Assembly (NCBI GenBank): GCA_043809145.1
Contig: JAZDED010000033.1
Location: 18,196-82,195, forward strand
Source of the DNA: Candidatus Omnitrophota bacterium
GTDB taxonomy: Bacteria; Omnitrophota; Gorgyraeia; Gygaellales; Profunditerraquicolaceae
DNA: 64,000 bases
Direction: 5' to 3'
Below, piece after piece: positions 2,051 through 22,005 of the stretch (positions within the stretch are counted from its first letter, which is position 1; the number at the start of each line of letters is the position of its first letter). Under the pieces are notes generated by a model that had not been told where the DNA came from, made no database searches, and was given only the letters and a program-made list of their open reading frames with translations. Made by a program: the position numbers and the translations under genes.

Positions 2051-2054
2051 CCTT

Positions 2055-2666
2055 ATGTGGTATTGGATATTCAGCATCTTATTTTCCGTAATCGGTAAAA
2101 CCTTTTTTCAATTAAAAGTAGAGGGATTGAAAAATATTCCCTCGCGAACCAATTTTATTATAGTGGCTAACCACTTTAGTTTTCTCGACCCACTGGTAAT
2201 CATGGCAGCGGTGCGCAAGAAGATTTACTGCATTGCCCTAAGGGACATTTATAAAATCAAGTGGATGGGGTGGTTTCTAAAAATGGTAGAGACCTTTCCC
2301 TGCGGAACAGCATCATCGATTGCGGTAAAACTCTTATCAGAAAATAAAAATGTGGGCCTTTTTCCCGAAGGCGGAGTCAGCCGCGACGGAAAACTTAAAG
2401 AATTCAGGCGGGGCGCGGCACTCTTAGCTTATAAGACCGGCCGCCCAATAGTCCCTTGCGCCATATTGGGCGCATTTGAATCTCTTCCTTTTGGCAACAG
2501 CTTCCCTAAGATGCGCCCGATTAAATTAAAGATTGGCCGGCCTATCTATCTGACTAAAGAGTTTGATGAACGTATAGACGAGCTGTATTTGCAAGACGGG
2601 ATTTTTCGTATCCGAAATTCTATAAAGGAAATGTTAAAATGCCCGATAACGAATTTATCGAAATAG
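2055..2666 (+). CDS. 1-acyl-sn-glycerol-3-phosphate (PlsC/AGPAT-family) acyltransferase
   Basis: HX4D block VANHFSFLDP and FPEGGVSRDG block, with an N-terminal TM segment. ATG at 2055 is preferred over TTG at 2037. Confidence 0.8.
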   Translation: MWYWIFSILFSVIGKTFFQLKVEGLKNIPSRTNFIIVANHFSFLDPLVIMAAVRKKIYCIALRDIYKIKWMGWFLKMVETFPCGTASSIAVKLLSENKNVGLFPEGGVSRDGKLKEFRRGAALLAYKTGRPIVPCAILGAFESLPFGNSFPKMRPIKLKIGRPIYLTKEFDERIDELYLQDGIFRIRNSIKEMLKCPITNLSK

Positions 2667-4234
2667 AAATATCAAAAATTATCCAGGCTGAAAAATGGAA
2701 AATTATCCGCCTCCTGACAAAAGTCTGGGAATTTCCTTCGTATGTACCCTGCGTAAAAGAATCATCGGTAATCCTGAAAAAACGCCATGTAATGCAAACC
2801 CGATGGTCAATCAAGCTTGAGAATATACCGATTAGATGGATTGAAGAAGACACTCTTTCGCTTAAGGAGAATGCAATTTATTTCAAGGCTATCGAAGGTG
2901 ACCTTGAAGAATTCCGAGGTATCTGGACATTCGCAAACCTTCCCGAAGGAACACTTGTAAAATTACATATCAGCCTTAAAGTCGGCATCCCGGCAATCAA
3001 TGAATTTGCCAATGAGTATGTACGCAAACTAATAACGAAAAATTTTGAGGCTATTCTTGATGCTATTGAACGCAGGCTTATATCAACGCGTTACAGCAGT
3101 TACCGCCAGGGCAATATAGAAAAAATATCCGGATTCGGCATTATTATTCATTTTTATAATTACTGCCACCTGGAGAAGGGCCTGCTTAAACTTAATCCCG
3201 AACTTAAGTTACCTTCCCGGGCATTCCTACAACAGCTCTATCAAATCGCTCCTTCATTTAAGCTCTGCGATATTGATAGTTTTACCTCCAAGAATAAAAG
3301 TTCGGTAAAGGGCTCATTTGTAATAGCTACTTTTATCCCGGATATGCTGGAACAGGACCAATGGGCAGCTTATTCAAAAGTCATCAAAGCCTGCAAGATA
3401 GCAGAAAAAAAAGGAGTAGGTATTGTAACCCTGGCTAATTTTTCTTCTATGGTGCCGCAGAAAATCGACCATAAAATAAGCGATGATATCTATGTCCCGG
3501 TAACTACCGGGAATTCTTTTACCGTAGCCACAGTCATAGAAAGCATTCTTAAAGCCAATATGGCCCTACAGCTGAACCTTAGCCAATCGACCTTGACAAT
3601 TGTCGGAGGAACAGGAGATATCGGCAGCGCCTGCGCCAGAATACTGGCGGATAGAGTGAAAGAATTGATCATAACCGGAAGGAACAAGGAAAAGTTAAAG
3701 AACCTACATGATGAGTTAGCCCGTAAATATAAAACAAAGATTATTGCAACTACCGATAATCTTGCGGCAGTCAAAGCCGCTGACATAGTCATCGCCTGCG
3801 CAAACTCCAGCGCGTCATTTCTGAATATTGACTGGTTCAAACCCGCGAGCATAATCTGCGATGTAGGATATCCTAAAAACGTCTGCTATTATTCCAGCCG
3901 GGAGGATATACTGATATTTTCCGGAGGCTTGGTAAAATCCCCTACTCCTATTGATTTTCCTATTGACCTGGGGCTGCCGGCTCAGGATATAATCTATTCT
4001 TCTTATGCCGAAGGAATAATCCTGGCCCTGGAGAAAAGGTATGAAAATTATTCTCCCCAGGACAAAAATATTACTCCGCAAAAAGTTGAAGAAATAAGGC
4101 AACTCGGGGCTAAACATGGTTTTGAGCCGGCGGATTTTTACTGGTCAGGAAAACCCATAACCGAAGACCATATCCAGAAGGTGCGCAAAATTAACCAACT
4201 ACTCGGAAAAAATGCTGAATATAAAATAATATAA
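2639..4234 (+). CDS. SRPBCC (cyclase/dehydrase, START-like) domain fused to an acyl-ACP-reductase (cyanobacterial AAR)-like domain
   Basis: The N-terminal ~145 aa have an SRPBCC pattern (W..F.SYVP..., GDLEEFRGIWTF). The rest aligns by eye along its length with Synechococcus AAR: FGIIIHF, TFIPDML, TTGNSFT, TIVGGTGDIGSACARIL, GRNKEKLKNLHDEL, DVGYPKN, AKHGFEP. The AAR catalytic Cys position reads Ser (YSSYAEG). Confidence 0.65.
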   Translation: MPDNEFIEIEISKIIQAEKWKIIRLLTKVWEFPSYVPCVKESSVILKKRHVMQTRWSIKLENIPIRWIEEDTLSLKENAIYFKAIEGDLEEFRGIWTFANLPEGTLVKLHISLKVGIPAINEFANEYVRKLITKNFEAILDAIERRLISTRYSSYRQGNIEKISGFGIIIHFYNYCHLEKGLLKLNPELKLPSRAFLQQLYQIAPSFKLCDIDSFTSKNKSSVKGSFVIATFIPDMLEQDQWAAYSKVIKACKIAEKKGVGIVTLANFSSMVPQKIDHKISDDIYVPVTTGNSFTVATVIESILKANMALQLNLSQSTLTIVGGTGDIGSACARILADRVKELIITGRNKEKLKNLHDELARKYKTKIIATTDNLAAVKAADIVIACANSSASFLNIDWFKPASIICDVGYPKNVCYYSSREDILIFSGGLVKSPTPIDFPIDLGLPAQDIIYSSYAEGIILALEKRYENYSPQDKNITPQKVEEIRQLGAKHGFEPADFYWSGKPITEDHIQKVRKINQLLGKNAEYKII

Positions 4235-4235
4235 T

Positions 4236-5276
4236 ATGGCTAAATTCGCATTTATCGTAAATCCGGTTGAGCTCAACAATATCTATCAGCAATTTCCTTT
4301 CTCCCGGATACTTCCGAAAATTATCCTAAAAAAAGCGCTGCGCCTGCTTCCGCCGTTAAAAATAGCGCAAACAAGAAAATTTCTATCCCCTGCAGGAGAA
4401 GAAATACAAGGTTATTTTATAGCGCTACCTTTACTCTCAGAGCAGATTAGAGAGCTAGATGAAACCGACGCCGTTAAAAGACTGACCCTCTGTATAGACC
4501 TATGCCGCAGGCTTCAGGTGGATATTATTGGAGTAGGCGCAGCAGCCGCAACCATAGGCAATGGCCTGGAGGAGATTTCCAAGCAATGCGAGATACCATT
4601 GACTAATGGCTCCAGCCTCGGCTCAGCCGCGATACTGGAAGTAATAGAAAAAGCGGCAATCCTAAAACATATTGACCTTAAAAATACGAAACTTGCGATT
4701 ATCGGCGCCACTAATGCAGTCGGACAAAACTGCTCGCTTGAGTTTTCCAGACAGGTGGCTTCGCTGAGTTTAATCGCTAAAAATGAACAGCGTTTAATTG
4801 AGTTAAACAAATATCTGCTCGCGCAGCATATAACAGCGCAGATAGAGATAAACCCGGCTAACGCGCCTGAAGCAGTCAAATGCGCTGACATCGTAATATT
4901 CACCGCTTCCGCAGGTGAAATTAACTTTAAGACAACGGCTGACTCATTTAAAAAAGGGGCAATAGTCTGTGATATGCCTGCTTCGCGAAATATAACCCGA
5001 AAGATAGCTTTAACAAGAAAAGACATTCTGGTCATTGATACCGACGTAATTAAACCGCCGCAAACAATTGATTTAGGCTTCAGCCTGCCACAAATAGGAA
5101 AGGGGAACCTGTTTGCCTGTATAGCCGAAACAATACTGTTAACACTTGAGAAGAAATTTGACCGGAATTTCTCTGTTGGCTTTAAACCTGACCTGAATAA
5201 AACAAAAGAGATACTAACGATTGCTAAAAAACATGCCTATAAAATCGCGTTTACGAGCTTCAACCAGGAAATTTAA
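4236..5276 (+). CDS. acyl-ACP-reductase (AAR)-like protein, paralogue of the previous gene
   Basis: FAFIVNP, LAIIGATNAVGQNCS, AKNEQRLIELNKYL and LFACIAETILLTLEK (Cys retained at the AAR FACFAE position). The glycine motif is degenerate (GATNAVG). Confidence 0.65.
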   Translation: MAKFAFIVNPVELNNIYQQFPFSRILPKIILKKALRLLPPLKIAQTRKFLSPAGEEIQGYFIALPLLSEQIRELDETDAVKRLTLCIDLCRRLQVDIIGVGAAAATIGNGLEEISKQCEIPLTNGSSLGSAAILEVIEKAAILKHIDLKNTKLAIIGATNAVGQNCSLEFSRQVASLSLIAKNEQRLIELNKYLLAQHITAQIEINPANAPEAVKCADIVIFTASAGEINFKTTADSFKKGAIVCDMPASRNITRKIALTRKDILVIDTDVIKPPQTIDLGFSLPQIGKGNLFACIAETILLTLEKKFDRNFSVGFKPDLNKTKEILTIAKKHAYKIAFTSFNQEI

Positions 5277-5943
5277 ATCCAGGAACCTGCAGCAACCAAT
5301 AAAATCATTACTGTTATTACTGATAATAATATGGTTTACCGCAGCCGTATCAATATCATTTTCCGATCCAAAGAATACCTTGCTTACCCTTGTTTTGATT
5401 TTAATCGCCATAGAGCGCTTTATAGAAACCTTCTTCACCAGCAAACAAAATATTTTGAAAAAAAATACCAGGTTCGATTGGATTTTTATCTCATTGACCC
5501 TTGGCTATATAATGCTTATGTATGGATCACTTCTAGAGGCGTTTTTTAGCCCACATAAACTTTCTCCGCTTATTTCAATCCAAGGTATTATAGTCTACTG
5601 CCTGGGCTTAGGCCTGCGATGGTGGTCGATTAAATCCCTGGGTTTTGGCTGGAACCTCTTTATATCAAAAAAGTCCATAAAAAAAAGTGTACATTTAAAA
5701 CTGGTTAAAAACGGTCCGTATGCGCTGGTGCGCCACCCCATATATATAGGGACCATTTTTGAAATACTAAGCATCCCGATAATTGCCAATGCCTTATTCT
5801 CCCTGATCTTTGCCATTGCCACAATAATCCCGTTATTGATTATTCGAGCGTTATTGGAAGAAGAGATCTTAGTCCGTTATTTCAAAAACCGTTACGCTGA
5901 ATACAAAAAAAGAACAGGTTTTCTTATGCCTAAGCTTTTTTAA
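5233..5943 (+). CDS. membrane methyltransferase of the ICMT/PEMT family
   Basis: Multi-TM protein with LVKNGPYALVRHPIYIGTIFE and the C-terminal LLEEEILVRYFKNRYAEYKKRT signature. Confidence 0.65.
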   Translation: MPIKSRLRASTRKFKSRNLQQPIKSLLLLLIIIWFTAAVSISFSDPKNTLLTLVLILIAIERFIETFFTSKQNILKKNTRFDWIFISLTLGYIMLMYGSLLEAFFSPHKLSPLISIQGIIVYCLGLGLRWWSIKSLGFGWNLFISKKSIKKSVHLKLVKNGPYALVRHPIYIGTIFEILSIPIIANALFSLIFAIATIIPLLIIRALLEEEILVRYFKNRYAEYKKRTGFLMPKLF

Positions 5944-5954
5944 AAAATATACCT

Positions 5955-8126
5955 ATGAATATTATGATTTTTTACTCCTTAAGCGGGTTATTCAGCGCGG
6001 TCATCGCTTCCGTGTTCGGCATATTCGTATTCATCAAAAAACCGCAAGGAGCAGTTAACCGCACCTACGCGGCCTTAAGCTTCTGGATTGCCTTATGGGG
6101 ATACGCCTATTTTTATTTTCCCATATCGCAAAATGATAAGGATACCGTACTTTTATCCTTCCAAATCCTACAAATAGGCGCTATTTTTATCGGCCCGGCA
6201 TTCCTGCATTTTGTCCTATCCCTTTTAAATATGCATAAAGAAAAGAGAGGGTGGGTTAACCTAGCTTATATACTGGGCATTATCTTCGCAATTTCAGACT
6301 TCACTCCGTTTTTCATAAAAAGAATGGTTCCAAAATTTGAATTTAATTACTGGGCTGAACCGGGTTTCATGTATCACTTATATCTTGTATTCTGGTCCTG
6401 GTGCATTATCTATCCCTGGAGTTTAATACTGCGCAGATACAGCCAACTATCAGAATTTAAACAGAACCAGTTAAAATATGTATTTATCGCCTCAATAATA
6501 GGCTTTCTGGGCGGAGCTACCAATTATCCTTTCTGGTACAATATAGCTATACCTCCAATAGGCACATTCCTGGTAGGAGTGCATGTGCTTATCCTAGCCT
6601 ATGCCATCATTAAATACCGCCTGATGGATATAAAAGTCACGATTACCAGAGCAGGTGTTTTCCTGGCAGTATATACCCTGGTGCTGGGCGCGCCTTTTAT
6701 CCTCTCTACATCCGGAAAATTGCTCCTGATTGAAATCCTGGGAAGAAATTGGTGGTTGGGCCCATTGGTTCTTATGGCGCTCCTGGGCACAGGAGGCCCT
6801 TTTATATACATCTTCCTCAAGAACAGCGCTGAATCATTGATATTACGCGAACAAAAAAAATGCCAGAAGGTTCTTAAAAACGCAGCTGTCGACCTGACCC
6901 GTATACGCAATATACAAAAACTGCTGGATTTTGTCTGTCAAACTATAACCGAAGCCGTGAATATAAAGAACGCGGCAATTTATTGTTTTGACGCCAAACA
7001 AAACGCCTTCATTCTGCAATCAGGAATGGACTTAAGTAAAAAACAGCCCAAATCCATACCTTGCCATAATAAACTCATTGAACTGATGCAGAAGAATAGA
7101 GACTCGCTTATCCTGGAGGAAATTATATACAACTCTCAAGAAGATAATACCTCCTGCCTAAAAAGCCTGGAAATAGAGATGCTTCAATTAGGCGCAGCCA
7201 TGGCAGTACCCTGTTTTCTAGAAGACAAACTCCTGGATGTCATCATCCTGGGCGAAAAGAAATCTGCAAAGATGTATGGGCAGGAAGATGTGGAAAATTT
7301 CAATATTCTGGCTCCGGAAGTGGCGCTAGCAACGGAAAATGCCCAGCTCTACGAAAAAATAGAAGAGGAGGTCCGCGAAAAAACCAGCGAACTAGGTGAA
7401 ACCCAGAAGCAGCTGGTACAGGCAGAAAAATTAGCCACCATCGGAACTTTGGCCGGAGGAGTAGCGCATGAAATAAATAATCCTTTAACCGCTATACTAA
7501 CCAATGTCCAGATGCTATTAGATAGCGACGAGCCGGATAAGGAATGTTTAGAAATGATTGAAGACGCCACCAAACGCTGCAAAACAATAGTCCAGAAATT
7601 AATGGCCTACGCCAAGAAACCACATGCGAATAACGAAGAGCTCGTCATGCTGGATTTACGCCAGACTACCGAGAAAACAGTCTCTTTTCTCAAATTTCAG
7701 ATGGATCAGGAAAGTATCACGCTAAATATAAAAAAAACCAAAAACGAATGCCTGATTATGGGCAATCCCAATGAATTAGAACAAGTGATAACCAATATCC
7801 TGATTAACGCAAAAGATGCTATTAAACAAATCCATAAAAGTGGTATAATTAATGTATCAGTTTACGAGCACCAGTCTTGGTCTAAAATAGAAATACAAGA
7901 CGACGGAGTGGGAATAGCAAAAGAACTGCTCCCTAGAATATTCGACCCTTTTTTTACCACTAAAGATGTGGGAAAAGGCCTGGGGTTGGGATTATCTATC
8001 TGCCAATCGATTATAGAAAAACATAGCGGCAGGATATGCGTAGATTCCGAGATTAATAAAGGCGCGAGGTTCACTATATGGCTCCCCCTGACTACAAAGG
8101 TAGACAGGAGCAGGAAAACAGTCTAA
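5955..8126 (+). CDS. sensor histidine kinase: N-terminal 7TM sensor region, GAF-like domain, HisKA, HATPase (HK1)
   Basis: About 290 aa of TM helices. H-box GGVAHEINNPL, N-box ITNILINAKDA, DDGVGI and GKGLGLGLS. Confidence 0.85.
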   Translation: MNIMIFYSLSGLFSAVIASVFGIFVFIKKPQGAVNRTYAALSFWIALWGYAYFYFPISQNDKDTVLLSFQILQIGAIFIGPAFLHFVLSLLNMHKEKRGWVNLAYILGIIFAISDFTPFFIKRMVPKFEFNYWAEPGFMYHLYLVFWSWCIIYPWSLILRRYSQLSEFKQNQLKYVFIASIIGFLGGATNYPFWYNIAIPPIGTFLVGVHVLILAYAIIKYRLMDIKVTITRAGVFLAVYTLVLGAPFILSTSGKLLLIEILGRNWWLGPLVLMALLGTGGPFIYIFLKNSAESLILREQKKCQKVLKNAAVDLTRIRNIQKLLDFVCQTITEAVNIKNAAIYCFDAKQNAFILQSGMDLSKKQPKSIPCHNKLIELMQKNRDSLILEEIIYNSQEDNTSCLKSLEIEMLQLGAAMAVPCFLEDKLLDVIILGEKKSAKMYGQEDVENFNILAPEVALATENAQLYEKIEEEVREKTSELGETQKQLVQAEKLATIGTLAGGVAHEINNPLTAILTNVQMLLDSDEPDKECLEMIEDATKRCKTIVQKLMAYAKKPHANNEELVMLDLRQTTEKTVSFLKFQMDQESITLNIKKTKNECLIMGNPNELEQVITNILINAKDAIKQIHKSGIINVSVYEHQSWSKIEIQDDGVGIAKELLPRIFDPFFTTKDVGKGLGLGLSICQSIIEKHSGRICVDSEINKGARFTIWLPLTTKVDRSRKTV

Positions 8127-8141
8127 GCAGGAGGCAAAAAG

Positions 8142-8534
8142 ATGTCTAAGAAAATCCTCATAATCGACGATGAAACAATGATTACCAAAAGCCTGAAAAA
8201 ACTGCTCACTAAAGAAGGATACCTTCCGACAATCGTCTCAAGCGGAAACGAAGCGCTTGACCAGCTCAAAACCGATAATTTCGATCTTTTGGTATTGGAT
8301 ATGCGCATGCCCCAGATGGACGGTATTGAAACCATCCGGGCTATCCGCCAATACCTGGCAATAGAGCAAAAAGACCCCATGCCGGAAATAGTCATTACCG
8401 GATACGCAGACGAAAATAAATATAAGTGCGCCGTAGACCTTAAGGTGGCAGCCTACATTTACAAACCTTTTGACACTAAAGATTTTATGGCTACGGTAAA
8501 AAAAGCCCTGGGAGAAGATAATGCTGCAAAATAA
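8142..8534 (+). CDS. single-domain response regulator (REC)
   Basis: KILIIDDE, LLVLDMRMPQMDG and YIYKPF. GGAGG lies upstream. Confidence 0.85.
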   Translation: MSKKILIIDDETMITKSLKKLLTKEGYLPTIVSSGNEALDQLKTDNFDLLVLDMRMPQMDGIETIRAIRQYLAIEQKDPMPEIVITGYADENKYKCAVDLKVAAYIYKPFDTKDFMATVKKALGEDNAAK

Positions 8535-9264
8535 AACAGCGATTATTAGCGGAGCTTCGCGCGGAATAGGAAGAGCGATTGCTTTGGAGTTAGCTGCTAG
8601 CGGATGTAATATATCTTTCAGCTACCTAAAAAATGAAGCGGAAGCCAGAAAACTGGAAGAAGAAATCATAAAGATAAAAGTTAAGGCTATGGCTTTTCAG
8701 GCAGATATTAAAGATTATGAAGCGGTGTGCGCCTGGGTAACTAAAACCAAAGAAGTATTCGGTTCTCTGGATATAGCCATAAACAATGCCGGAGTAATTA
8801 AAGACAAAGCCCTAGTTTTTATGGAAAAAATAGACTGGCAGGAGGTCATGCAAACTAACCTAGACGGAGTATATAATCTAAGCCGGGCAGTGATCACCGG
8901 ATTCTTAAAACAAAAAAGCGGCAATATCATTAATATCAGCTCCGTAAGCGGGATTATCGGGCTGCCACGTCAAACTAATTATTCTGCCTCCAAGGCAGGA
9001 GTAATCGGTTTTACCAAAGCCCTAGCCAAAGAAGTTGCCGGATACAACATCCGAGTTAATGCAATAGCCGCGGGTTTTATCGAAACAGACATGACTAAAG
9101 AACTCAAGGATTCGCTGCGGGAAAAGATGCTTAAAAATATCCCCCTGGGCCGCTTTGGAAAAACTGAAGAAGTAGCTCTTGCAGTTAAATTCCTGGCCAG
9201 TGACGTATCGGAATATATTACCGGAGAAACCCTGGTCATTGACGGCGGATTATCAATGTTATGA
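8521..9264 (+). CDS. fabG: 3-oxoacyl-ACP reductase (SDR)
   Basis: SGASRGIGRAIA, NNAG, YSASKAG and GETLVIDGG. Confidence 0.85.
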   Translation: MLQNKTAIISGASRGIGRAIALELAASGCNISFSYLKNEAEARKLEEEIIKIKVKAMAFQADIKDYEAVCAWVTKTKEVFGSLDIAINNAGVIKDKALVFMEKIDWQEVMQTNLDGVYNLSRAVITGFLKQKSGNIINISSVSGIIGLPRQTNYSASKAGVIGFTKALAKEVAGYNIRVNAIAAGFIETDMTKELKDSLREKMLKNIPLGRFGKTEEVALAVKFLASDVSEYITGETLVIDGGLSML

Positions 9265-9301
9265 GACGAAGTAACCGAATGCTTGGTTATTAAATAAATA
9301 T

Positions 9302-10543
9302 ATGGGTAATAATAAAGTAGTCATAACCGGAATCGGAGTAATTGCTCCCAACGGCATCGGCAAGGATGAATTCTGGAAAGCATTAAAGAATGGTATATCC
9401 GGAATCCGGCCGATTACTATCTTTGACTCTACTCTATTTAAGACACACCAGGCAGGAGAGGTGATTAATTTTGATCCGGTGACCTACTTGGGAGAAAAAG
9501 GCTTGCGCAATTTAGACCGCAGCACCAAACTTCTGTGTTCTGGCGCAAAGTTAGCCCTGGATGATGCCCGCCTGGATACAACAGGTGATAATGCCGATCA
9601 TATCGGAATAATAACCTCAACCACGCTTTCAGTTATCTGGAATATCGCGGAATTTAATAAAGAGGCAGAGGACTCCGGGCCGCAGTTAGTCAATCCGGCT
9701 ATGTTTCCCGGAACCACTATTAACGCGCCCTCAAGCCAAGTTTCAATCAGGTTTAATATTAAAGGTTTTAATACCACTATCTCCACAGGTTATACTGCCA
9801 GCCTTGACGGCCTTAAATATGCGGTTGATTTCTTAAGGGCAGGACGGGCAAAAGCGATATTACTTGCCGGAGTAGAAGCGCTATTTTTCCAAACTTTTGT
9901 CGGGTTTAATAAATTGGAATTCTTAGCCGGGATAAAAGGAGAGGAACTTTCATGCCCATTTGATTTACGCAGAAATGGAATCATAGTCGGTGAGGCAAGC
10001 GCGGTGCTGGTTTTAGAAAATGAAGCTTACGCGCACCAAAGAAAAGCAAGAATTTACGCCGAAGTAAAAGCCGTGGAAAACTTCTTTGATCCTTTCCGCA
10101 GCGGAAGATACAACCCCAAATCCGAGGGCCTCAAACGTTCTATGACCAAAACCCTCAAGGATAGCCGCTTAAAAGAATCCGAGATAAGCTATATTTGCGC
10201 AGCAGCAAACTCCGTGCCTCTTCAGGATGCCCTGGAAACAGCAGCCATTAAAGAGGTATTCGGTGCAACAGCCGCTAAAGTACCGGTGAGTTCAATTAAA
10301 TCCATGGTCGGAGAAACCGTAAGCGCCGCCGGCGCATTGCAGATTGCCGCGTCTATCGGAGCTATGGAGCAAGATTTTATTCCCCCGACAATAAATTACC
10401 AAAAACCTGATCCGGCCTGCGACCTGGATTATGTTCCAAATAAATGCAGGTTTCAAAAAATAAATAATGTTTTGATTAATAATTTTGGCCCGGGTGGAAA
10501 CAATGCTTCCTGCATAATAGGAAAATATGAATGCTTGCAATAG
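9302..10543 (+). CDS. beta-ketoacyl synthase-like protein lacking catalytic Cys/His/His (chain-length-factor-like partner)
   Basis: KS fold motifs (VVITGIGVIAPNG, GFNKLEFLA). The active-site block reads ISTGYTAS instead of TACAAG, HGTGT is replaced by AAANSV, and the Lys/His block is KSMVGETVSAAG. Confidence 0.75.
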   Translation: MGNNKVVITGIGVIAPNGIGKDEFWKALKNGISGIRPITIFDSTLFKTHQAGEVINFDPVTYLGEKGLRNLDRSTKLLCSGAKLALDDARLDTTGDNADHIGIITSTTLSVIWNIAEFNKEAEDSGPQLVNPAMFPGTTINAPSSQVSIRFNIKGFNTTISTGYTASLDGLKYAVDFLRAGRAKAILLAGVEALFFQTFVGFNKLEFLAGIKGEELSCPFDLRRNGIIVGEASAVLVLENEAYAHQRKARIYAEVKAVENFFDPFRSGRYNPKSEGLKRSMTKTLKDSRLKESEISYICAAANSVPLQDALETAAIKEVFGATAAKVPVSSIKSMVGETVSAAGALQIAASIGAMEQDFIPPTINYQKPDPACDLDYVPNKCRFQKINNVLINNFGPGGNNASCIIGKYECLQ

Positions 10544-11744
10544 AGTAGTTGTCACCGGCCTGGGAGTTATTTCGGCCATCGGCACCGGTAGAAAAAAATT
10601 CTGGGAAGCCGCCCTAAGCGGGGCCTCAGGAATAAATGAAGTCTCCTCGTTCGATACGAGCAGTTTTAAATGCCACCGAGCAGGAGAAGTTAAAAATTTT
10701 AATCCTGAAGAATTCATCCCTAAAAGAAAGGTCAAATTTTTAGGCCGCTCTTCGCAATTGGCCATTGCTGCTGCGTCTTTAGCCATTCAGGACGCTGGTT
10801 TTGAATTAAAGACTCTGCCCAAAAATAAATTAGGCGTACTCATAGGCACTACCATGGGAGAAAAACCCATTGAAGAGCTGGCGCAAATCTGGGCCAAGGG
10901 AGGACTAAAAGATATTGACCGCCGCAGAATCCTGCAATCTTCAGCAAATAATATATCAGCCAATGTAGCCATGTACGCCAAAGCTCGTGGCCAAAATTAT
11001 TTATTTCCCACAGCCTGCGCAGCTGGAAATTATGCCATTGGTTATGGATTTGATTTAATCCGCAGCCGCGATATAGATTATGCCCTAGCCGGAGGAGCAG
11101 AAGCTTTTTCATACACTGCCTTTGTAGGCTTCCAGCGTCTTTATGCCATGGCTACTGATAAATGCCAACCCTTTGATAAGAACCGCAAAGGCATGATGTT
11201 AGGAGAAGGGTCAGCAATGCTGCTTTTAGAAAGATTAGACCTGGCTCTGGAAAGAAAGAGAGAGATTTACGCGGAAATCATAGGCTACGGATTATCCTGC
11301 GACGCACATCATGCTACAGCTCCGGAAGTCAGAGGCGTATCCCAAGTAATGGAAAAAGCGCTAAAGGAATGCAGTATCTCTTATAAAGATGTGGATTATA
11401 TCTGCGCTCACGGTACAGGAACGCCGATGAACGACAGGATAGAAGCCCAAGCAATCAAAAATGTGTTCAAAGAACGCGCTAAAGAAATCCCGGTCAATGC
11501 CCTTAAATCCATGCTCGGGCACAGTATGGGCGCTGCCTCTGCTATAGAAGCAGTGTCCTGCTGCCTCTCCGCAAAATTTGACACAATACCCCCAACTATA
11601 AATTACGAAACCCCTGACCCGCAATGCGATATTGACTGCGTGCCAAACACTAAGCGGGAAAAAATAATAAATATTGCCATGAATAATGCCTTTGCTTTCG
11701 GCGGAAATAATTCCAGCCTGGTAATAAAAAAATTTATAAAGTAA
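10527..11744 (+). CDS. beta-ketoacyl-ACP synthase (FabF/KS-alpha-like), catalytic triad intact
   Basis: PTACAAGNYAIG (Cys), CDAHHATAP (His), AHGTGTPMND (His) and KSMLGHSMGAAS. Overlaps the preceding KS-like gene by 17 nt. Confidence 0.85.
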   Translation: MNACNRVVVTGLGVISAIGTGRKKFWEAALSGASGINEVSSFDTSSFKCHRAGEVKNFNPEEFIPKRKVKFLGRSSQLAIAAASLAIQDAGFELKTLPKNKLGVLIGTTMGEKPIEELAQIWAKGGLKDIDRRRILQSSANNISANVAMYAKARGQNYLFPTACAAGNYAIGYGFDLIRSRDIDYALAGGAEAFSYTAFVGFQRLYAMATDKCQPFDKNRKGMMLGEGSAMLLLERLDLALERKREIYAEIIGYGLSCDAHHATAPEVRGVSQVMEKALKECSISYKDVDYICAHGTGTPMNDRIEAQAIKNVFKERAKEIPVNALKSMLGHSMGAASAIEAVSCCLSAKFDTIPPTINYETPDPQCDIDCVPNTKREKIINIAMNNAFAFGGNNSSLVIKKFIK

Positions 11745-11822: not shown

Positions 11823-12074
11823 ATGCCCAAGACGGATTTTGAGCAGATAAAAAAAGAAGTCAAAAGAATGGTGGCTGAAATAACCGAGCTAACAGAAACT
11901 AAGCTCAAAGACGAAGCAAAGTTTGTGGATGACTTAGGGGTTGACAGCATGATGGCCCTGGAAATCGTAGCCAGCATTGAAAAGAAATACAAAGTTACAA
12001 TTCCTGAAACCGAAATTCCTAAGATGCGCTCGCTTAACGATATTTACGCGTTGCTTGAAAAGGAAATGAAATAG
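11823..12074 (+). CDS. acyl carrier protein
   Basis: 83 aa with DDLGVDSMMALEIV (phosphopantetheine Ser). Confidence 0.85.
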   Translation: MPKTDFEQIKKEVKRMVAEITELTETKLKDEAKFVDDLGVDSMMALEIVASIEKKYKVTIPETEIPKMRSLNDIYALLEKEMK

Positions 12075-12078
12075 GCCA

Positions 12079-12522
12079 ATGAACGCTATCTGGGATATAA
12101 CCAAAATCCAGGAGATCTTGCCGCACCGCTACCCATTCCTCTTCATTGATAGCGTAGTTGAAATTAACGAAGAGGAGAAACGGGTTGTCTGCCTAAAAAA
12201 CGTTACCATAAATGATTATTTCTTTAAGGGCCATTTTCCTGGTAATCCGGTGATGCCGGGAGTAATTATCATTGAAGGCATGGCCCAATCCTGCATCATA
12301 CTTTACGCCGCCATTAAGCCCGAGATAGCCGCTAAACATCCTATCTATTACCTGGGCAACGCCGATATTAAATTCCTTAAACCCGTATTCCCGGGCAGCC
12401 AGCTTATGCTGGAAGCAACCCACCGCAAGATCATGGAGAAGGTCGGTATTGCCAGCGTCACAGCCAGGGTCAACAATGAAATCGTAGCCAAAGGCGAAAT
12501 CATCTTTGGCATCAAACTATAG
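12079..12522 (+). CDS. fabZ: 3-hydroxyacyl-ACP dehydratase
   Basis: LPHRYPFLFIDSV and GHFPGNPVMPGVIIIEGMAQ. Confidence 0.85.
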   Translation: MNAIWDITKIQEILPHRYPFLFIDSVVEINEEEKRVVCLKNVTINDYFFKGHFPGNPVMPGVIIIEGMAQSCIILYAAIKPEIAAKHPIYYLGNADIKFLKPVFPGSQLMLEATHRKIMEKVGIASVTARVNNEIVAKGEIIFGIKL

Positions 12523-12649: not shown

Positions 12650-13738
12650 ATGACAAATCACAAACCACATCAGCCGACCATATTTTTAACCGGGGCAACA
12701 GGATTCCTGGGATCCTATCTATTAAAACTTTTCCTTGAAAATAATCATAAAGTATATGCCTTGTCCAGAGGAAAAAAAAGCCAGGATACCAGAGGGAGGA
12801 TTATTTCGGTATTAGAATTCTGGGGAGGCCCATGTTTAAAAAAGATCATCAACCTGATTGTCCTAAACGGTGACGTAACCCTAAAAAACCTGGGTTTAAG
12901 CAGGCCTGATAGAAGCCTCTTACAAGCCAAGACTGAACAAATCTTTCATTCAGCGGCAATTACCGACCTAAAAACAGAATCAAAACAAATCAACAAGGTT
13001 AATATTGAAGGTACGAGAAATATCTTAAACCTGGGTTTAGAATGGCATAAAAAAGGATGCCTTAAAAAAATTAACCATATCAGCACTGCTTATATCTACG
13101 GAGATTATCAGAAAACTTTTAAAGAGAGCGACTTTTACAAAAGGCAGAAATTCTATACCAATTACGAACAGAGTAAGTTTGAAGCTGAAAAAATTGTACA
13201 GCAATTCAGAAGGAAGGGGCTATGGATAGATATCTATCGCCCATCCATGGTCTTGGGCGAATCCAAATCCGGAAAAACCTTTCAACTAAAACATATCTAC
13301 CAATTCCTTAATCTTTGTAAAGTTGAAATATTTCAATCCCTGCCTATCAAAAACGGCTATGTCAGCCTGGTGCCTATTGATATAACCTGCAAAGCGATCT
13401 ATCTCTTAAATACCATGAATAAAGTTAGGAATATGGTCTTTCACCCTTTCCCTAGAAAACTGACATCTATTGAAGAAATCCTCAATATTGGAGCAAAGCT
13501 TATAGGCTTTGACCCCCCTCAAGCAGTAGAATTAAAAGATTTCCCCACCCTAAACCTGACCCCAGTCCAAAGGATGTTATTAAATGATACAGTGCTTTCG
13601 GTTAATTTTAAGACCAAAATTAACTCGGATATAACTAATAATTTATTAGAAAAATACCGTTTTAAGATACCGAATATGGACAATAAAATCTTATCACTAA
13701 TCCTCAGATACTCCATCAATAAGAAGAGAGGAAAGTGA
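12650..13738 (+). CDS. thioester-reductase-type extended SDR (fatty acyl reductase / NAD_binding_4-like)
   Basis: IFLTGATGFLGSYLL, ALSRGKK, FHSAA, NIEGTRNIL, HISTAYIYG, YEQSK (YxxxK) and YRPSMVLGESKSGK. Confidence 0.65.
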   Translation: MTNHKPHQPTIFLTGATGFLGSYLLKLFLENNHKVYALSRGKKSQDTRGRIISVLEFWGGPCLKKIINLIVLNGDVTLKNLGLSRPDRSLLQAKTEQIFHSAAITDLKTESKQINKVNIEGTRNILNLGLEWHKKGCLKKINHISTAYIYGDYQKTFKESDFYKRQKFYTNYEQSKFEAEKIVQQFRRKGLWIDIYRPSMVLGESKSGKTFQLKHIYQFLNLCKVEIFQSLPIKNGYVSLVPIDITCKAIYLLNTMNKVRNMVFHPFPRKLTSIEEILNIGAKLIGFDPPQAVELKDFPTLNLTPVQRMLLNDTVLSVNFKTKINSDITNNLLEKYRFKIPNMDNKILSLILRYSINKKRGK

Positions 13739-15009
13739 TGCAAGAAAGATATGATTATATTATTGTAGGAGCAGGGCTCTGCGGCCTGGTCTTAGCCAAG
13801 GAACTTAGCCAGAAAAATAAAAGAGTCCTTATTCTGGAAAGGGGAGGATATATACGCAACCTTGGAAGTATCATGTACGTGGCTCCGTTTTACGATAAAA
13901 TTGGATTAGCCAAAAGCCGCCAAGGAGTAATTAATCTGCGTGTATTAGGAGTTGGCGGAACAAGTGTGGTCAGCTGCGGCAATGCTGTAGAATTTCCCGA
14001 AGAAGAAACAAAGAAAATAGGAATAGATTTTAGCAGTGAAATTGAGTCATCAAAAAAAGAATGCAATGTAAGTACAGACCATGTAATTGGAAGAGCCTCT
14101 AAAAGAATCATGGAAGAGGCTAATCGATTAGGGTATGGAATGCGCTCCATGCCAAAACTTCATTTAAAAAAATGTGTTTCTTGCGGTAACTGCATCTGGG
14201 GATGCGCTCATCAAAATAAATGGAGTTCTATAGATTTCCTGAAAGATATCAACACTAAAAATATTCAGATTATAACCAGCTTCAATGTACGCAAAGTAAC
14301 CTCCTCCAATAGCAAGGCCCTGGGAATCGAAGGAACTCGTAACCTTAACCCAAAGAAATATCTTGCCGAAAAAATAATCCTGGCCGCTGGAGGCTTAGGA
14401 ACACCGGTAATCCTGCAGAATTCAGGTATTGAAGAAGCAGGAAAAAATCTTTTTCTCGATTTATTCAATATTATATATGGCCTTAATGAACAATACAACC
14501 AGGCTAAAGAATTAACTATGTCAGTAGTTTGCGATAAATTCCATAAAAATGAGGGCTTCATACTTTCACCGCTAGTTGATAGCTCAATTGGGCTTCTTGC
14601 CTGTATAGACTTAAAATACATTGGAAATGTATTCAGGCTAAATAATCTTATGGGCTTAATGAATAAGATTAAAGATGAAAACATGGGTCGGGTTTATCCT
14701 AACGGCGCTTTTGACAAAACACCCACTGCCAATGATCGAAAAAAACTAAATAAAGGCGCAGAAGTTGCCAAAGAAATACTTATCCAATGCGGAGTTAGGC
14801 CTAAAAGTATTTTTGTAACCCGTCCCAGAGGGGCGCATCCCGGCGGCACAGCAGCAATCGGGAAAGTCGTGGACAAGAATTTAGAAACGCGGATTAAAAA
14901 TCTTTTTGTTTGCGACGCAAGCATACTACCAGAAGCGCCAGGCCTACCGCCCATATTGACCCTTGTAGCTATATCAAAATGGTTTGTTAAAAATATTTTG
15001 GAGAAATAA
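13735..15009 (+). CDS. GMC-family FAD oxidoreductase with an internal Cx2Cx2Cx3C motif
   Basis: YDYIIVGAGLCGLVLA...ILERG (FAD ADP-binding) and C-terminal GAHPGGTAAIGKVVD...LFVCDASILP. Internal motif CVSCGNCIWGC. Confidence 0.7.
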   Translation: MMQERYDYIIVGAGLCGLVLAKELSQKNKRVLILERGGYIRNLGSIMYVAPFYDKIGLAKSRQGVINLRVLGVGGTSVVSCGNAVEFPEEETKKIGIDFSSEIESSKKECNVSTDHVIGRASKRIMEEANRLGYGMRSMPKLHLKKCVSCGNCIWGCAHQNKWSSIDFLKDINTKNIQIITSFNVRKVTSSNSKALGIEGTRNLNPKKYLAEKIILAAGGLGTPVILQNSGIEEAGKNLFLDLFNIIYGLNEQYNQAKELTMSVVCDKFHKNEGFILSPLVDSSIGLLACIDLKYIGNVFRLNNLMGLMNKIKDENMGRVYPNGAFDKTPTANDRKKLNKGAEVAKEILIQCGVRPKSIFVTRPRGAHPGGTAAIGKVVDKNLETRIKNLFVCDASILPEAPGLPPILTLVAISKWFVKNILEK

Positions 15010-15594
15010 ATGGATATATTAAAACTTATTAAAAAAAGATGCACAACAAGAATATATTTAAATAAAAAGATACCTCACAAAATAATAAATAAAATAATTG
15101 AAGCAGGGGTATGGGGACCATCCATACACGGTTTCCAACCTTGGAAATTTATAATAGTACAAAATCGGAAAATAATTAACAGATTTTCTAAAACCATTCT
15201 TAGTAAAACTCAAATAACAGAAACTTATGCAAATACTCTAATGACCATTACAGCTAGGACAATTAAAAACGCTGGCACAATTATAGCTATATATAACTCT
15301 AGAAATTTTACAAATTTTGCACATCAATTTAAAAAAAGAAACTACACTAAAATATCTGAATTATCAGAAGTTGAAGCCATATCTGCAGCGATCCAAAATA
15401 TGTTACTTACTGCAGAGACATTAAGAGTTGGTAGCTGTTGGACAATAGTACCATTATTTTACGAACAAGAAATTAATAGAATACTAGATACAAAAGATAG
15501 ATTATTAGCCATTGTTACATTGGGTTTTCCTGCAGAAAAAGGCAGAAGAACAAAGCGTAAACCTAATAATATAGTTACTAAATATATAGCTTAG
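15010..15594 (+). CDS. nitroreductase-family flavoprotein
   Basis: CTTRIY, IIEAGVWGPSIHGFQPWKFIIV and AIQNMLLTAETLRVGSCW. Confidence 0.7.
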   Translation: MDILKLIKKRCTTRIYLNKKIPHKIINKIIEAGVWGPSIHGFQPWKFIIVQNRKIINRFSKTILSKTQITETYANTLMTITARTIKNAGTIIAIYNSRNFTNFAHQFKKRNYTKISELSEVEAISAAIQNMLLTAETLRVGSCWTIVPLFYEQEINRILDTKDRLLAIVTLGFPAEKGRRTKRKPNNIVTKYIA

Positions 15595-15595
15595 A

Positions 15596-17032
15596 ATGCG
15601 TAATAGATATGATGCTATTATAATCGGAGCGGGAATTGGAGGCTTAGTAGCTGGATGCTACTTATCTAAACTCGGATCCAGGGTATTAATCATTGAACAA
15701 CAAAATAAACCAGGAGGATGCTGTACCTCATTTGAAAAAAACGGATATAAATTTGATGTAGCTGTTCACTATTTAGGAGGAATCAATAAAGGAATACTAG
15801 GAACTATATTTGATGAGTTGGGGTTAAGGGGTGATTTAAAATTCAATCAATTTGATCCTGTCGATAAAATCATAACACCAAAAATTATAACTTATATAAG
15901 AAACAAATCGACTTCTACAATTAAAGAGTTAAAGCACAACTTTTCCAAGGAAAGGAACAATATTGATAAATTCTTTTCTTTTGTATTACATGAAAATATT
16001 TATAATATGTATAAGAAGGTAGGTGCTTTAACAACAAAACAATTGCTTGATACTTTTTTTGAAGATAGATGTTTGAAAAGCACTTTAAATGTTACCTTGA
16101 GAAACATTGGATTATGTGCAAATGAATCATCTTCACTTGCATTCATTACTCTACTAAAAGATTACATATTAGATCCTGGATACTACCCTATTGGCGGCAT
16201 GCAAGAATTACCAAATAAATTGGCAGATAAATGCATAAACTTTGGAGGAAAGATTATCTTAAATCATTCCGTAAATAAAATTGTTCTTTCCAATAAAATG
16301 GTACAAGGAGTTAGGCTTGATGATGGGCAAGAATTCAAAACCAATACAGTTATCTCAAATATTAATGCAACAGATACATTCTTTAATCTATTAAAAATTA
16401 AAACGAGAGAACAAAACATAATAAAGAAACTTGTGCCCTCCCCATCTCTTTTTCTCGTATATGTCGGTCTCAATAATAAATTTAAGATTTCTTCAAAGGC
16501 GTCCTATAATATCTGGCCTTTTTTAAGCAATAATTTAAACAGATCTCCTGTTGTTTCAAAAAAAGAGATTGAAAGGGGAAAAGCATCAATAACAACAATA
16601 ACCTTTCCCTCCCAGCACGATAATTCAGTATCTAAAAAAACAGCAACTATTTTTTCTACTGTAGAGATTAGCAATAAAATATTCTGGGACAAATATAAAA
16701 ATATATATGCAAATAGTCTAATAAATAAAACAGAGAAAATAATTCCTTTTTTTAGTAATTTTGTTGATTTAAAGATAGTGGCAACACCATATACCTTTCA
16801 AAAATACACCTCAAATAAAAATGGCTCCGCATACGGCTGGGCTTCAAATGTTAAACAAATAAGCACAGCATTAATATCTCAGAAAACATCGATACCTGGA
16901 TTATTTCTAGCTGGACATTGGTCTATGGTCGGAACAGGACAAGGCGGGGTATCAAAATCAGCTTTTTCAGGAAGAAGAGTTGCTAGTTTAATATTAAACG
17001 AGAACAAATCTTTAATTAATGAATTTAAGTAA
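15596..17032 (+). CDS. CrtI/phytoene-desaturase-family NAD(P)/FAD oxidoreductase
   Basis: YDAIIIGAGIGGLVAGCYLSKLGSRVLIIEQQNKPGGCC, IGGMQELP and C-terminal GLFLAGHWSMVGTGQGGV. Confidence 0.75.
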   Translation: MRNRYDAIIIGAGIGGLVAGCYLSKLGSRVLIIEQQNKPGGCCTSFEKNGYKFDVAVHYLGGINKGILGTIFDELGLRGDLKFNQFDPVDKIITPKIITYIRNKSTSTIKELKHNFSKERNNIDKFFSFVLHENIYNMYKKVGALTTKQLLDTFFEDRCLKSTLNVTLRNIGLCANESSSLAFITLLKDYILDPGYYPIGGMQELPNKLADKCINFGGKIILNHSVNKIVLSNKMVQGVRLDDGQEFKTNTVISNINATDTFFNLLKIKTREQNIIKKLVPSPSLFLVYVGLNNKFKISSKASYNIWPFLSNNLNRSPVVSKKEIERGKASITTITFPSQHDNSVSKKTATIFSTVEISNKIFWDKYKNIYANSLINKTEKIIPFFSNFVDLKIVATPYTFQKYTSNKNGSAYGWASNVKQISTALISQKTSIPGLFLAGHWSMVGTGQGGVSKSAFSGRRVASLILNENKSLINEFK

Positions 17033-19237
17033 TAGTATGAATATTTTTGCTTTTTCATCAATTTTAATTATTGTATCTAATCTACTTTGCGCAATCTTTC
17101 TTCTAAGAATCCCTAAACAAAGATTGAATGCAATATGGGCTGTGGTATGTATAGCTGTTTCTATCTGGGGCGTTGGATCCTACAAGTTTTCAACTGCTCA
17201 AACTAAAGAAGTGGCGTTCTTTTGGTGGCAAATAGCACACATAGGCACAATATTCGTACCTGTATTTTACTATCATTTTGTACATTCATATCTTAAATTA
17301 AATAAAATATACCAAAAACACCTACTTATTGTAGTCTATCTATTAGGTGTATTCTTTCTTGTATGTACTTTTTATCCGAAAAAAATATTCATAGGTGAGC
17401 TTAGACTTATATTTAATCAATACTACTCACATGATTGGACAATAAAAAAAATATACTTTACTTACTTTTTTATATTAGTTTCTACTGGATACTTTTAATG
17501 TATTCTTTTTGCTTAATCTTAAATAGGTATCTTCATTCTAGTGGACTTATTAAAAATCAACTAAAATATTTCTTTGTTGCTATGATAGTTGGTTGGTTTG
17601 GTCCCCATGGAGACTATCTTCCAGTATTCGGAATATATATTTATCCATATTCAAATTTTCTTATGACCTTTTACACCATCATTATAGCCTATGCGATTTT
17701 TAAATACCGGCTTCTGGATGTAAGAGTTGCCATTACCCGCGCTGGCCTTTTTATTGCGGTTTATACTCTGGTTTTAGGCGTTCCATTTGCCATTGCCAAT
17801 CTTTACAAACAGACATTAGTAGATTGGTTAGGGGCAAACTGGTGGATGCTTCCTCTAAGCTTAATGGCAGGCTTAGCTACAATCGGGCCATTCATCTACA
17901 TCTATCTTGACCGCAAAGCAGAAGAGGCGCTTTTAAGAGAACAAAAGAGATACCAGAACACCTTAAAGCAGGCATCGGTAGGAATGACCCGCATTCGCAA
18001 TTTAAAAAGGCTCCTGGAATTAATCGCCCATATCGTAACCAAGACCGTCAAAATTTCCTACGTAGCTATCTATATCTACGATAAGGATAATGATGAGTAT
18101 GTCCTGCAGGTCAACCGAGACAAAGGGAGGATTCCCATTGCCCGATTAAGCTCATCCAATATCCTTTTAGATTTTCTATTTAGAAAGCGCGAACCAATTA
18201 TCTATGAAGAAATCAAACGCCTTAGCGAAGACTCTACAAACCCAATTTATAAAAGTATAGAAGAAAATATGGCGCAATTAACGGCTTCAGTTATTATTCC
18301 CAGCCTCTTAGAAAGAAAACCCATGGGCTTTATTGTCCTGGGAGACAAAATGTCAGGACAGATTTATACTCCGGATGATTTAAATGTCTTCCAGGTCTTA
18401 GCCAGCCAGGCAGCATTGGCTATTGAAAATGCTAAATTTATAGAAGAGGCTAAAGAAATGCAGGCGCAGATTGCCCACGCGGAAAAGATGGCTACCGTAG
18501 GAACCATGGCTGATGGATTATCGCACCAGATCAATAACCGTTTCTACGCCTTATCCCTAATCGCCGGAGACGCGCTAGATAGCTTAAAAATCACAGATAC
18601 CACTAAATGCACTCCCGAAGTCCAGCAGATGCTTCAGGATATTAACCACGCCTTAGAGCGCATTGAGGTAAATGTAATGAAGGGTGGAGAGGTTGTTAAA
18701 GGTATCTTAAAATACACCCGCAAGGAAAAAGAGGTCTTTGAATCCTTAATCCTGGATGAAATAATTGACGGCACCCTGGACATGGTACAGTATAAAGTAA
18801 AGCTTTCGGATATAGACATTATCCGTAGTTACCGCAAAGACATTCCCGGGATACAAGGTAACCTGGTCCAACTTCAGGAGGTCTTCTTTAATTTTATCGA
18901 TAACGCCAATGACGCGATGGCTGAACGCAAAACCACCCTTAAGGAGCCGGGATACCGCGGAAAGATTACTATCTCAGCGATAGATGAAAATAACTCCCTG
19001 CAAGTTATTATCCAGGATAACGGCATGGGTATTAAAAAGCAGGACACCAAGAAAATATTCACTCCTTTTTTTACCACCAAAATCTCCTCCCGCAAAGGCA
19101 CCGGGTTAGGGCTCTATGTGATTAATAAAATCATTACAGAAAACCATCACGGCAAGATACTCTTTGAATCCGAACATATGGCCGGAACGCGCTTTATCAT
19201 CGAGCTGCCGATAGCTCAACCGCCTGCAGCCCAATAG
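17019..19237 (+). pseudogene. sensor histidine kinase HK2 (paralogue of HK1) split by a frameshift in an A8 run. It may be a real pseudogene, a slippage switch or an assembly error.
   Basis: ORFs 17019-17498 and 17435-19237 together reconstruct the HK1 architecture. The frame change maps to AAAAAAAA at 17444-17451. Downstream motifs: AYAIFKYRLLDVRV, LSHQINNRF, FIDNANDAM, DNGMGI, GTGLGLYV. Confidence 0.7.
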
Positions 19238-19333
19238 CATTTTCTTTTCATGGAATAGCGAATATGGAATTACTTCTTGCAAAGTCGGAAATAGTTTAAT
19301 AGAATGTAAGCCTGTGTTAAAAGAGGAGGTAGA

Positions 19334-19699: not shown

Positions 19700-19706
19700 A
19701 TACAAT

Positions 19707-21988: not shown

Positions 21989-22005
21989 TTTACGCAACTC
22001 AGAAA

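Follow-up and report, generated by a model that had tools for sequence, protein, structure and literature searches.

Two overlapping ketosynthase genes at the locus

The DNA studied here is a stretch of 64,000 nucleotides (hereafter the window) from a Candidatus Omnitrophota bacterium (assembly GCA_043809145.1, contig JAZDED010000033.1, positions 18,196 to 82,195 of the forward strand). It contains two adjacent genes for proteins related to FabF, a beta-ketoacyl-acyl carrier protein (ACP) synthase. In this work the upstream gene is called KSmut and the downstream gene KS (for ketosynthase); their coordinates and those of the surrounding genes are compiled in Table 1. The ATG of KS (10527-10529) lies in front of the TAG of KSmut (10541-10543), resulting in an overlap of 17 nt, and a Shine-Dalgarno-like AGGA is located ahead of the KS start at 10519-10522. 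Both products possess the N- and C-terminal ketoacyl-synthase Pfam domains. With 336.1 bits for KSmut and 415.9 bits for KS, however, neither protein reached the cutoff (493.75) of the FabF equivalog model TIGR03150.

Catalytic residues were assigned by aligning the two proteins with Thermus thermophilus FabF (1J3N), E. coli FabF, Iga11 of the ishigamide system and both chains of the PDB entry 9S5H. In KS, all relevant residues are intact (Cys164, His295, Lys327, His332 and the gating Phe391). In KSmut, the position of the active-site Cys is occupied by Tyr164, those of the first and second His by Ala301 and Glu338, and that of the gating Phe by Pro397, while the conserved Lys (Lys333) is retained. 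An earlier note on this DNA, prepared from the letters alone, had claimed that the upstream protein lacks all three catalytic residues and that the downstream KS, overlapping by 17 nt, keeps Cys, His and His. Both statements were borne out by the alignment. The note had also named the case that the residues are shifted but still present; since no Cys or His was found near any of the three triad positions of KSmut, they are absent and not shifted. Two of the motif replacements that it had listed, ISTGYTAS for TACAAG and AAANSV for HGTGT, were right. Concerning the third, the CDAHH block, it was correct that the corresponding upstream block (FDPFR) has no His, but this block does not belong to the catalytic triad. 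The third triad position actually lies in the GH motif (K-S-M-x-G-H), the His of which is Glu in KSmut.

Relationship to a heterodimeric ketosynthase of anammox bacteria

The closest characterized relatives of the window pair are the two chains of 9S5H, which rank far ahead of canonical FabFs. KSmut yielded 382 bits against amxFabFmut, 240 bits against canonical FabF and only 131 bits against the chain-length factor (CLF) of the actinorhodin system. The entries 9S5H and 9S5I contain amxFabF2/amxFabFmut of Brocadia fulgida, whose Kuenenia counterpart is KustE3605/3606 (bioRxiv 10.64898/2026.05.19.726425, a preprint of May 2026). According to this preprint, amxFabF2 and amxFabFmut, which are encoded by the anammox Cluster I, co-purify and crystallize as a heterodimer. 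The Kuenenia and Brocadia proteins decarboxylated malonyl-ACP and formed acetoacetyl-ACP when the two subunits were combined, while neither subunit did so alone, and the pair acts like a KS/CLF pair. Mutations of Phe135 or Val139 in amxFabFmut, or of the gating Phe in amxFabF2, shifted the chain-length preference in crosslinking assays. Besides this pair, anammox bacteria have a canonical FabF (same preprint).

KS and KSmut are 52% and 46% identical, respectively, to the pair of the Brocadia clade, which in turn is 90% identical to the crystallized B. fulgida subunits. Each window subunit appears to be orthologous to the corresponding anammox subunit. Phe135 is present in KSmut of the window and invariant in 85 of 85 family members; position 139 is Thr in the window, and Val (62) or Thr (23) within the family. 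The gating Phe is retained in KS of the window and in its family. The dead subunits differ at two triad positions, as the window family has Tyr/Phe in place of the Cys and Ala/Ser in place of the first His, whereas the anammox protein has Val/Thr and Asn, respectively.

We therefore regard it as highly probable that the products of the two window genes together make up a single heterodimeric ketosynthase of the amxFabF2/amxFabFmut type. As far as its sequence relationships tell, the pair is a real and conserved CLF-like heterodimeric ketosynthase within a specialized lipid cluster resembling fatty acid synthesis (FAS). It belongs to a recently characterized class and is not a new class, so that its main value is comparative. 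The CLF-like reading that had been put forward earlier is thus supported by homology to a KS/inactive-KS heterodimer which has been purified, assayed and crystallized. The systems then suggested for comparison, actinorhodin KS/CLF and ApeO/ApeC, illustrate the principle of a KS combined with a dead KS, but they are distant from the window pair.

Conservation, distribution and phylogeny of the dead subunit

Among the 120 nearest database homologues of KSmut (59-100% identity), the Cys position is occupied by Tyr in 94 and by Phe in 26 proteins. The first His is replaced by Ala or Ser in 117 and the second by Glu or Asp in all 120 of them, the Lys being invariant. A scan of one genome per species disclosed 282 stretches with a KSmut relative, corresponding to up to 282 species. 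The best 80 of these 282 relatives showed 49-75% identity and originated mostly from metagenome-assembled genomes (MAGs) of Omnitrophota and Nitrospirota/Thermodesulfovibrionia; a few of them were labelled Planctomycetia, Desantisbacteria or Deltaproteobacteria. We retrieved 85 non-anammox loci and two anammox loci (labelled L001 etc.).

The dead pattern [Y/F/H]-x-K-E-P is present in KSmut of all 85 non-anammox loci, 64 of which also encode an intact KS (C-H-K-H-F), and the KSmut reading frame is unbroken in every locus. Over 60 loci, mean identity to the window proteins amounted to 57.6% for KSmut and 60.6% for KS. This nearly equal conservation indicates that KSmut is under strong constraint and not decaying. 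The two genes are co-located across two phyla, although gene orders vary: FabG-KSmut-KS-ACP-FabZ as in the window, FabG-KSmut-ACP-FabZ-KS in Nitrospirota, and KSmut-FabG-ACP-FabZ-KS.

Phylogenetic relationships were studied by a bootstrapped neighbour-joining tree of 56 sequences with few outgroups. All KSmut proteins, including those of anammox bacteria, formed one clade with 100% bootstrap support. The non-anammox KSmut proteins were monophyletic in only 17% of the replicates, which places the anammox branch inside the KSmut family. The single clade indicates that duplication and inactivation predate the split of these lineages. The active KS subunits grouped with the ishigamide KS Iga11 (95% bootstrap).

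In many Nitrospirota and some Omnitrophota loci, a third, divergent KS with an intact Cys-His-His triad directly follows the active KS (L029, 13141-14454; equivalents in L012, L016-L018, L020, L027, L030-L032, L035, L038, L046 and L048). It is 24-31% identical to KS of the window, forms a clade of its own and is perhaps involved in priming.

Gene neighbourhood of the pair

Table 1. Genes of the ketosynthase module and of its surroundings in the window
Feature	Position	Strand	Remarks
PlsC-type acyltransferase	2037-2666	+	Conserved upstream partner in Omnitrophota loci
SRPBCC (polyketide cyclase/START-like) and acyl-ACP-reductase-like fusion	2639-4234	+	
Second acyl-ACP-reductase-like/PigE-N-terminal-like protein	4236-5276	+	
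ICMT/PEMT-family membrane methyltransferase	5221-5943	+	
7TM-GAF histidine kinase (5955-8126) and stand-alone receiver (8142-8534)	5955-8534	+	Conserved immediately upstream of FabG
FabG-type 3-oxoacyl-ACP reductase (ketoreductase of the module)	8521-9264	+	TIGR01830 299.5 bits, cutoff 297.75
KSmut, FabF-like subunit without catalytic triad	9302-10543	+	413 aa; best PDB match 9s5h_C (amxFabFmut), E 3e-113
KS, active beta-ketoacyl-ACP synthase subunit	10527-11744	+	405 aa; best PDB match 9s5h_B (amxFabF2), E 1.8e-137
Dedicated ACP	11823-12074	+	Closest to anammox-specific ACPs
FabZ-type dehydratase with amxFabZ hallmarks	12079-12522	+	Best PDB matches amxFabZs
Thioester-reductase/NAD_binding_4 protein	12650-13738	+	Downstream of the module in many loci
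GMC-family FAD oxidoreductase, accessory	13735-15009	+	Common only to L006, L070 and a few others
Nitroreductase-family flavoprotein	15010-15594	+	Recurrent neighbour of the module
CrtI/phytoene-desaturase-family FAD enzyme	15596-17032	+	33% full-length identity to Brocadia and Scalindua PDH of Cluster I
Second 7TM-GAF histidine kinase (frameshift-split), receiver (19334-19699), HD-GYP protein (19707-20873)	17019-20873	+	
MGDG-synthase-like glycosyltransferase, lipid-A-type acyltransferase, GT2 glycosyltransferase	20876-23519	+	Conserved downstream block in several Omnitrophota loci

FabG is syntenic with KSmut in 69 loci. When the window ACP was compared with solved structures, 7qv0_D, 7auf_A and 9s5i_E ranked above canonical AcpPs; the ACPs of the family share approximately 27-44% identity with E. 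coli AcpP, and their scores do not attain the NCBIfam ACP cutoffs. In FabZ of the window, Ile replaces the tunnel Gly, and two basic (Lys/Arg) ACP-docking positions are occupied by Met and Leu. Not one of 71 FabZ family members has the tunnel Gly. The Ile tunnel together with non-basic docking positions has been singled out as distinguishing amxFabZ, in which this tunnel goes along with poor turnover beyond C8 (2023 JBC paper).

The arrangement of approximately 20 kb is conserved in L001, L005, L006 and L008. It comprises, in this order, the PlsC-type acyltransferase, the SRPBCC/acyl-ACP-reductase-like fusion, 7TM histidine kinase, receiver, FabG, KSmut and KS, followed by ACP, FabZ, thioester reductase, the nitroreductase-family protein, the second 7TM-GAF kinase, receiver and HD-GYP protein, and finally the MGDG-synthase-like glycosyltransferase, the lipid-A-type acyltransferase and the GT2 glycosyltransferase. 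The genes for the GMC oxidoreductase and the CrtI-like enzyme are found in a subset including L006, the closest relative of the window, and both are missing from L001.

We also searched the window and the 87 loci for further FAS genes within at most 10 kb, using tblastn with E. coli FabD, FabH, FabI and AcpP as queries. FabD and FabI were detected neither in the window nor in any of the 87 loci, FabH was found in one locus only (L085), and the ACPs found were all divergent. Likewise, the window cluster disclosed no enoyl reductase of the FabI/K/L/V type, no malonyl transferase and no KAS III.

Two peculiarities of this region may be mentioned. Between 14000 and 18000, where the GMC, nitroreductase-family and CrtI-like genes are located, the G+C content drops to 0.32-0.34 (0.41-0.44 on either side); this gene set is common to L006 and L070. 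The second 7TM-GAF kinase (17019-19237) is divided into two open reading frames. Its single 739-aa orthologue of L001 matches frame 3 up to 17450 and frame 2 from 17444, which indicates a frameshift near 17444-17450, either a real pseudogene or an assembly error.

Comparison with anammox Cluster I

Both retrieved anammox loci, one of the Brocadia type and one of Scalindua, exhibit the order ACP-FabZ-KS-KSmut-PDH-B12 radical SAM, PDH being the CrtI/phytoene-desaturase-family enzyme. Homologues of five of these six gene types (ACP, FabZ, KS, KSmut and PDH) occur in the window. ACP and FabZ are 50% and 44% identical to their Brocadia counterparts and PDH is 33% identical over its full length, beside the values for KS and KSmut given above. 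For the sixth, the cobalamin radical-SAM enzyme, tblastn with the Brocadia and Scalindua proteins gave no match in the window. Weak class-B radical-SAM matches (20-25% identity) were obtained in six other loci among the 85 (L077, L054, L081, L044, L082 and L063), and 30 of the retrieved non-anammox loci carry a PDH-like gene.

The window cluster further differs from Cluster I in that KSmut precedes KS and overlaps it, that FabG is inside the cluster, and that the module sits in a block of approximately 20 kb together with reductases, acyl- and glycosyltransferases and two-component systems. Moreover, its host belongs to the Omnitrophota, which are not known as ladderane makers. Anammox bacteria are the only reported source of ladderanes, and in two structural papers on their enzymes Cluster I is considered exclusive to ladderane producers, which is used as an argument for its ladderane role. 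In view of the loci presented here, that statement holds, at most, for the version containing the radical-SAM gene. Clusters classified by antiSMASH as "ladderane" are known to occur and to be expressed in Omnitrophota and other phyla, where no function has been assigned to them (PMC9902471). Hence, the existence of such clusters is not new, but their identification as modules of the amxFabF2/amxFabFmut heterodimer (amxFabFhet) type with amx hallmarks is, as far as the literature that was searched shows.

One of the loci with radical-SAM matches, L077 (Omnitrophota MAG DeMMO4_7; 4490-9928 and 15931-17433), has a B12-binding radical-SAM gene directly upstream of KSmut, a second B12 radical-SAM gene and a SPASM radical-SAM gene nearby, and a CrtI-like gene downstream. 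All gene types of Cluster I are therefore represented there, yet its radical-SAM proteins share no more than 22-25% identity with the anammox enzyme. A radical-SAM gene is also encoded by L081 (6224-7621).

Comparison with other ketosynthase systems

The second-best solved relative of KS is Iga11 of the ishigamide pathway (PDB 6KXD-F; 6kxd_A) with 322 bits and 43% identity. The ishigamide system, a highly reducing type II polyketide synthase (PKS), and the window module share a KS/CLF pair, a ketoreductase (KR), a dehydratase (DH) and an ACP, and both lack an enoyl reductase. KSmut, however, is not close to the ishigamide CLF-type subunit Iga12, as no Iga12 chain appears among the top 60 PDB matches of KSmut. 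Unlike the ishigamide system, the window module belongs to a host that is not an actinomycete and is devoid of amide-forming or polyene-tailoring machinery.

With the actinorhodin KS-alpha/CLF pair (PDB 1TQY), the putative window heterodimer has in common that an active KS would be combined with an inactive homologue shaping the acyl cavity. The scores are low, though (216 bits for KS; for KSmut see above), and KSmut does not contain the Gln of the CLF. Unlike the actinorhodin system, the window encodes KR and DH, and its sole cyclase-like element is the SRPBCC domain fused to a reductase-like domain. Compared to the homodimeric canonical FabF (KAS II), the pair exhibits the same fold and the same two domains, KS keeps every catalytic residue, and KR, DH and ACP are FAS-like. 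It is distinguished from FabF by its dead protomer, by the non-canonical ACP and FabZ and by the lack of fabD, fabH and fabI neighbours.

Proposed function and alternative explanations

Since the cluster region is without FabD and FabI within 10 kb and FabH occurs in one locus only, the module resembles a type II PKS or a specialized FAS that relies on malonyl loading from outside and lacks an enoyl reduction step. We propose that KS would carry out all the chemistry at Cys164, His295 and His332, i.e., it would take over the acyl chain from the ACP, decarboxylate malonyl-ACP and catalyze the Claisen condensation. KSmut, having an aromatic residue at the position of the active-site Cys and neither His, would be non-catalytic and replace the second FabF protomer, leading to an obligate heterodimer. 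Its helix-loop-helix (Phe135, Thr139) would line the wall of the acyl tunnel and thereby bias the accepted chain lengths, as a CLF does. Partners of the pair would be its own ACP, the FabG ketoreductase and the amx-type FabZ with its Ile-narrowed tunnel. Because the cluster is without a malonyl transferase, malonyl loading would have to come from elsewhere, and priming probably proceeds via decarboxylation of malonyl-ACP, as for the anammox enzyme in vitro.

By analogy to the anammox enzymes, the narrowing of the FabZ tunnel by Ile and the conservation of the tunnel residues hint at chains of short-to-medium length; the product of the module may thus be a short-to-medium, possibly unsaturated acyl-ACP. 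This acyl-ACP may be modified by the CrtI-like desaturase and released by the thioester reductase, presumably reductively to an aldehyde or alcohol. The released product would then be handed over to the acyltransferase and the glycosyltransferases. Together, desaturase, thioester reductase, acyltransferase and glycosyltransferases suggest that a specialized membrane lipid is made, the production of which may be controlled by the interleaved two-component systems, as the position of their genes suggests.

Several points weigh against this model. A heterodimer of the window proteins was deduced from homology, the overlapping genes and synteny, and the genes of the two partners do not lie in cis in all cases. 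Among the loci with full 10-kb flanks, eight contain KSmut-FabG-FabZ and neither KS nor ACP nearby (L059, 10001-12450, as well as L041, L044, L050, L053, L062, L063 and L082; all of one Omnitrophota sub-lineage). In L059 this trio lies between riboflavin/nusB genes and ligA, and the partner KS must be encoded elsewhere. The charge asymmetry invoked to explain heterodimer specificity (bioRxiv 10.64898/2026.05.19.726425) was approximated by net charges calculated for two segments, the helix-loop-helix and the partner helix, which gave no consistent signal. As the Brocadia pair itself gave none either, sequence charge is unusable as a proxy for this specificity. The anammox enzyme produced only acetoacetyl-ACP in vitro (same preprint), so that chain-length control is derived from crosslinking and not from products. 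The part of the model that concerns the product of the cluster is read from the neighbouring genes. Among these, the acyl-ACP-reductase-like fusion protein, when aligned with S. elongatus AAR (6jzz), shows Ser in place of the nucleophilic catalytic Cys; its reductase activity is therefore uncertain.

Alternatively, the cluster might represent the main housekeeping type II FAS of the organism, which would mean that Omnitrophota simply use a heterodimeric FabF. In Omnitrophota the family is indeed very widespread and extends to genomes with contigs of 1.2-1.6 Mb, and the trio of L059, which is situated among riboflavin, nusB and ligA genes, lies on such a contig (1.2 Mb). It fits as well that FabG reaches its equivalog cutoff and that the anammox enzyme can prime without FabH. 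Nevertheless, we consider this explanation unlikely. A housekeeping FAS does not agree with the lack of FabD and FabI within 10 kb in the window and the 87 loci, with the FabH of L085, where a canonical initiation enzyme exists alongside the module, or with the divergence of the ACPs from AcpP. The Ile in the FabZ tunnel, with its consequence for chains beyond C8 in amxFabZ, points in the same direction, as do the scores of KSmut and KS below the FabF cutoff and the canonical FabF which anammox bacteria carry besides the amx pair. Two Omnitrophota genomics papers are silent on fatty acid synthesis. That the pair is the KS/CLF of an aromatic type II PKS or of an aryl-polyene (APE) system is very improbable in our opinion, even though the KS/dead-KS architecture would fit. 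As in APE clusters, the surroundings of the window pair include an acyltransferase (PlsC-type) and a GT2; furthermore, an SRPBCC "polyketide cyclase" domain is located upstream, and in related loci the FabZ gave matches to Pfam models of the ApeI/ApeP-like kind. Yet KSmut has Tyr instead of the Gln of aromatic-PKS CLFs and scores higher with FabF than with the actinorhodin CLF, the lists of the top 60 PDB matches of KSmut and of KS contain no ApeO/ApeC chain (6QSP, 7F28), and the neighbourhood is devoid of AMP-ligase, thioesterase, LolA-like and MMPL export genes. The presence of KR and DH moreover denotes a reducing system.

Synthesis of ladderane lipids by the window cluster, i.e., outside of the anammox bacteria, is extremely unlikely. 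It would be in line with the five Cluster I gene types and with the expressed antiSMASH "ladderane" clusters of Omnitrophota MAGs (PMC9902471), but a homologue of the cobalamin radical-SAM gene is missing in the window, the PDH match amounts to only 33%, and ladderanes have been found solely in anammox bacteria, whereas the KSmut family extends to up to 282 species of non-anammox phyla. We attach equally little probability to the assumption that KSmut is a decaying duplicate (a pseudo-enzyme) or has acquired a new catalytic activity. Admittedly, all its canonical catalytic residues are lost, and a separate coupling role was once proposed for the anammox protein (Rattray et al.). Decay is contradicted by the intact reading frame in every locus and by a conservation nearly as high as that of KS, and a new activity by the alternation of Tyr and Phe at the Cys position, which speaks against a catalytic Tyr, and by the inactivity of the anammox homologue alone. 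On balance, the amxFabF2/amxFabFmut-type heterodimer is the reading that we prefer.

Implications for anammox Cluster I

Four signature proteins of Cluster I, with hallmarks supposed to be specific to anammox bacteria, recur outside of this group in the window and in up to 282 further species, and the anammox proteins branch inside the larger family. This weakens the argument drawn from the exclusivity of Cluster I and indicates the radical-SAM enzyme as the anammox-specific step. A tentative extension, which we consider possible but rather doubtful, is that the FAS-like core of Cluster I (the KS/dead-KS heterodimer, amx-type ACP, Ile-tunnel FabZ and CrtI-like desaturase) is an old module, widespread among Omnitrophota and Nitrospirota, for a specialized lipid, perhaps short-chain or unsaturated and reductively released, to which anammox bacteria added mainly the cobalamin radical-SAM step. 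If this were true, the non-anammox clusters would report the linear ladderane precursor, and the ring-forming chemistry would be narrowed to very few genes. The few Omnitrophota loci with B12-radical-SAM genes beside the module (e.g., L077) might make other modified lipids. Independently of this extension, the loci show that a putative CLF-type ketosynthase in a FAS-like pathway is common in two phyla about which little is known, and they provide a functional reading for the antiSMASH "ladderane" clusters in such genomes.

Further features of the window

Just upstream of the lipid cluster, the window contains a PabB-like aminodeoxychorismate-synthase gene (649-1761). Because it was not detected in any related locus, it probably belongs to unrelated folate metabolism rather than supplying a starter unit. 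Rfam and tRNA scans of the window gave nothing associated with the cluster; the sole RNA gene found is a tRNA-Arg(CCT) on the minus strand (44436-44510). At approximately 36 kb, the genes pass from the plus to the minus strand, and the GC skew switches in the same way.

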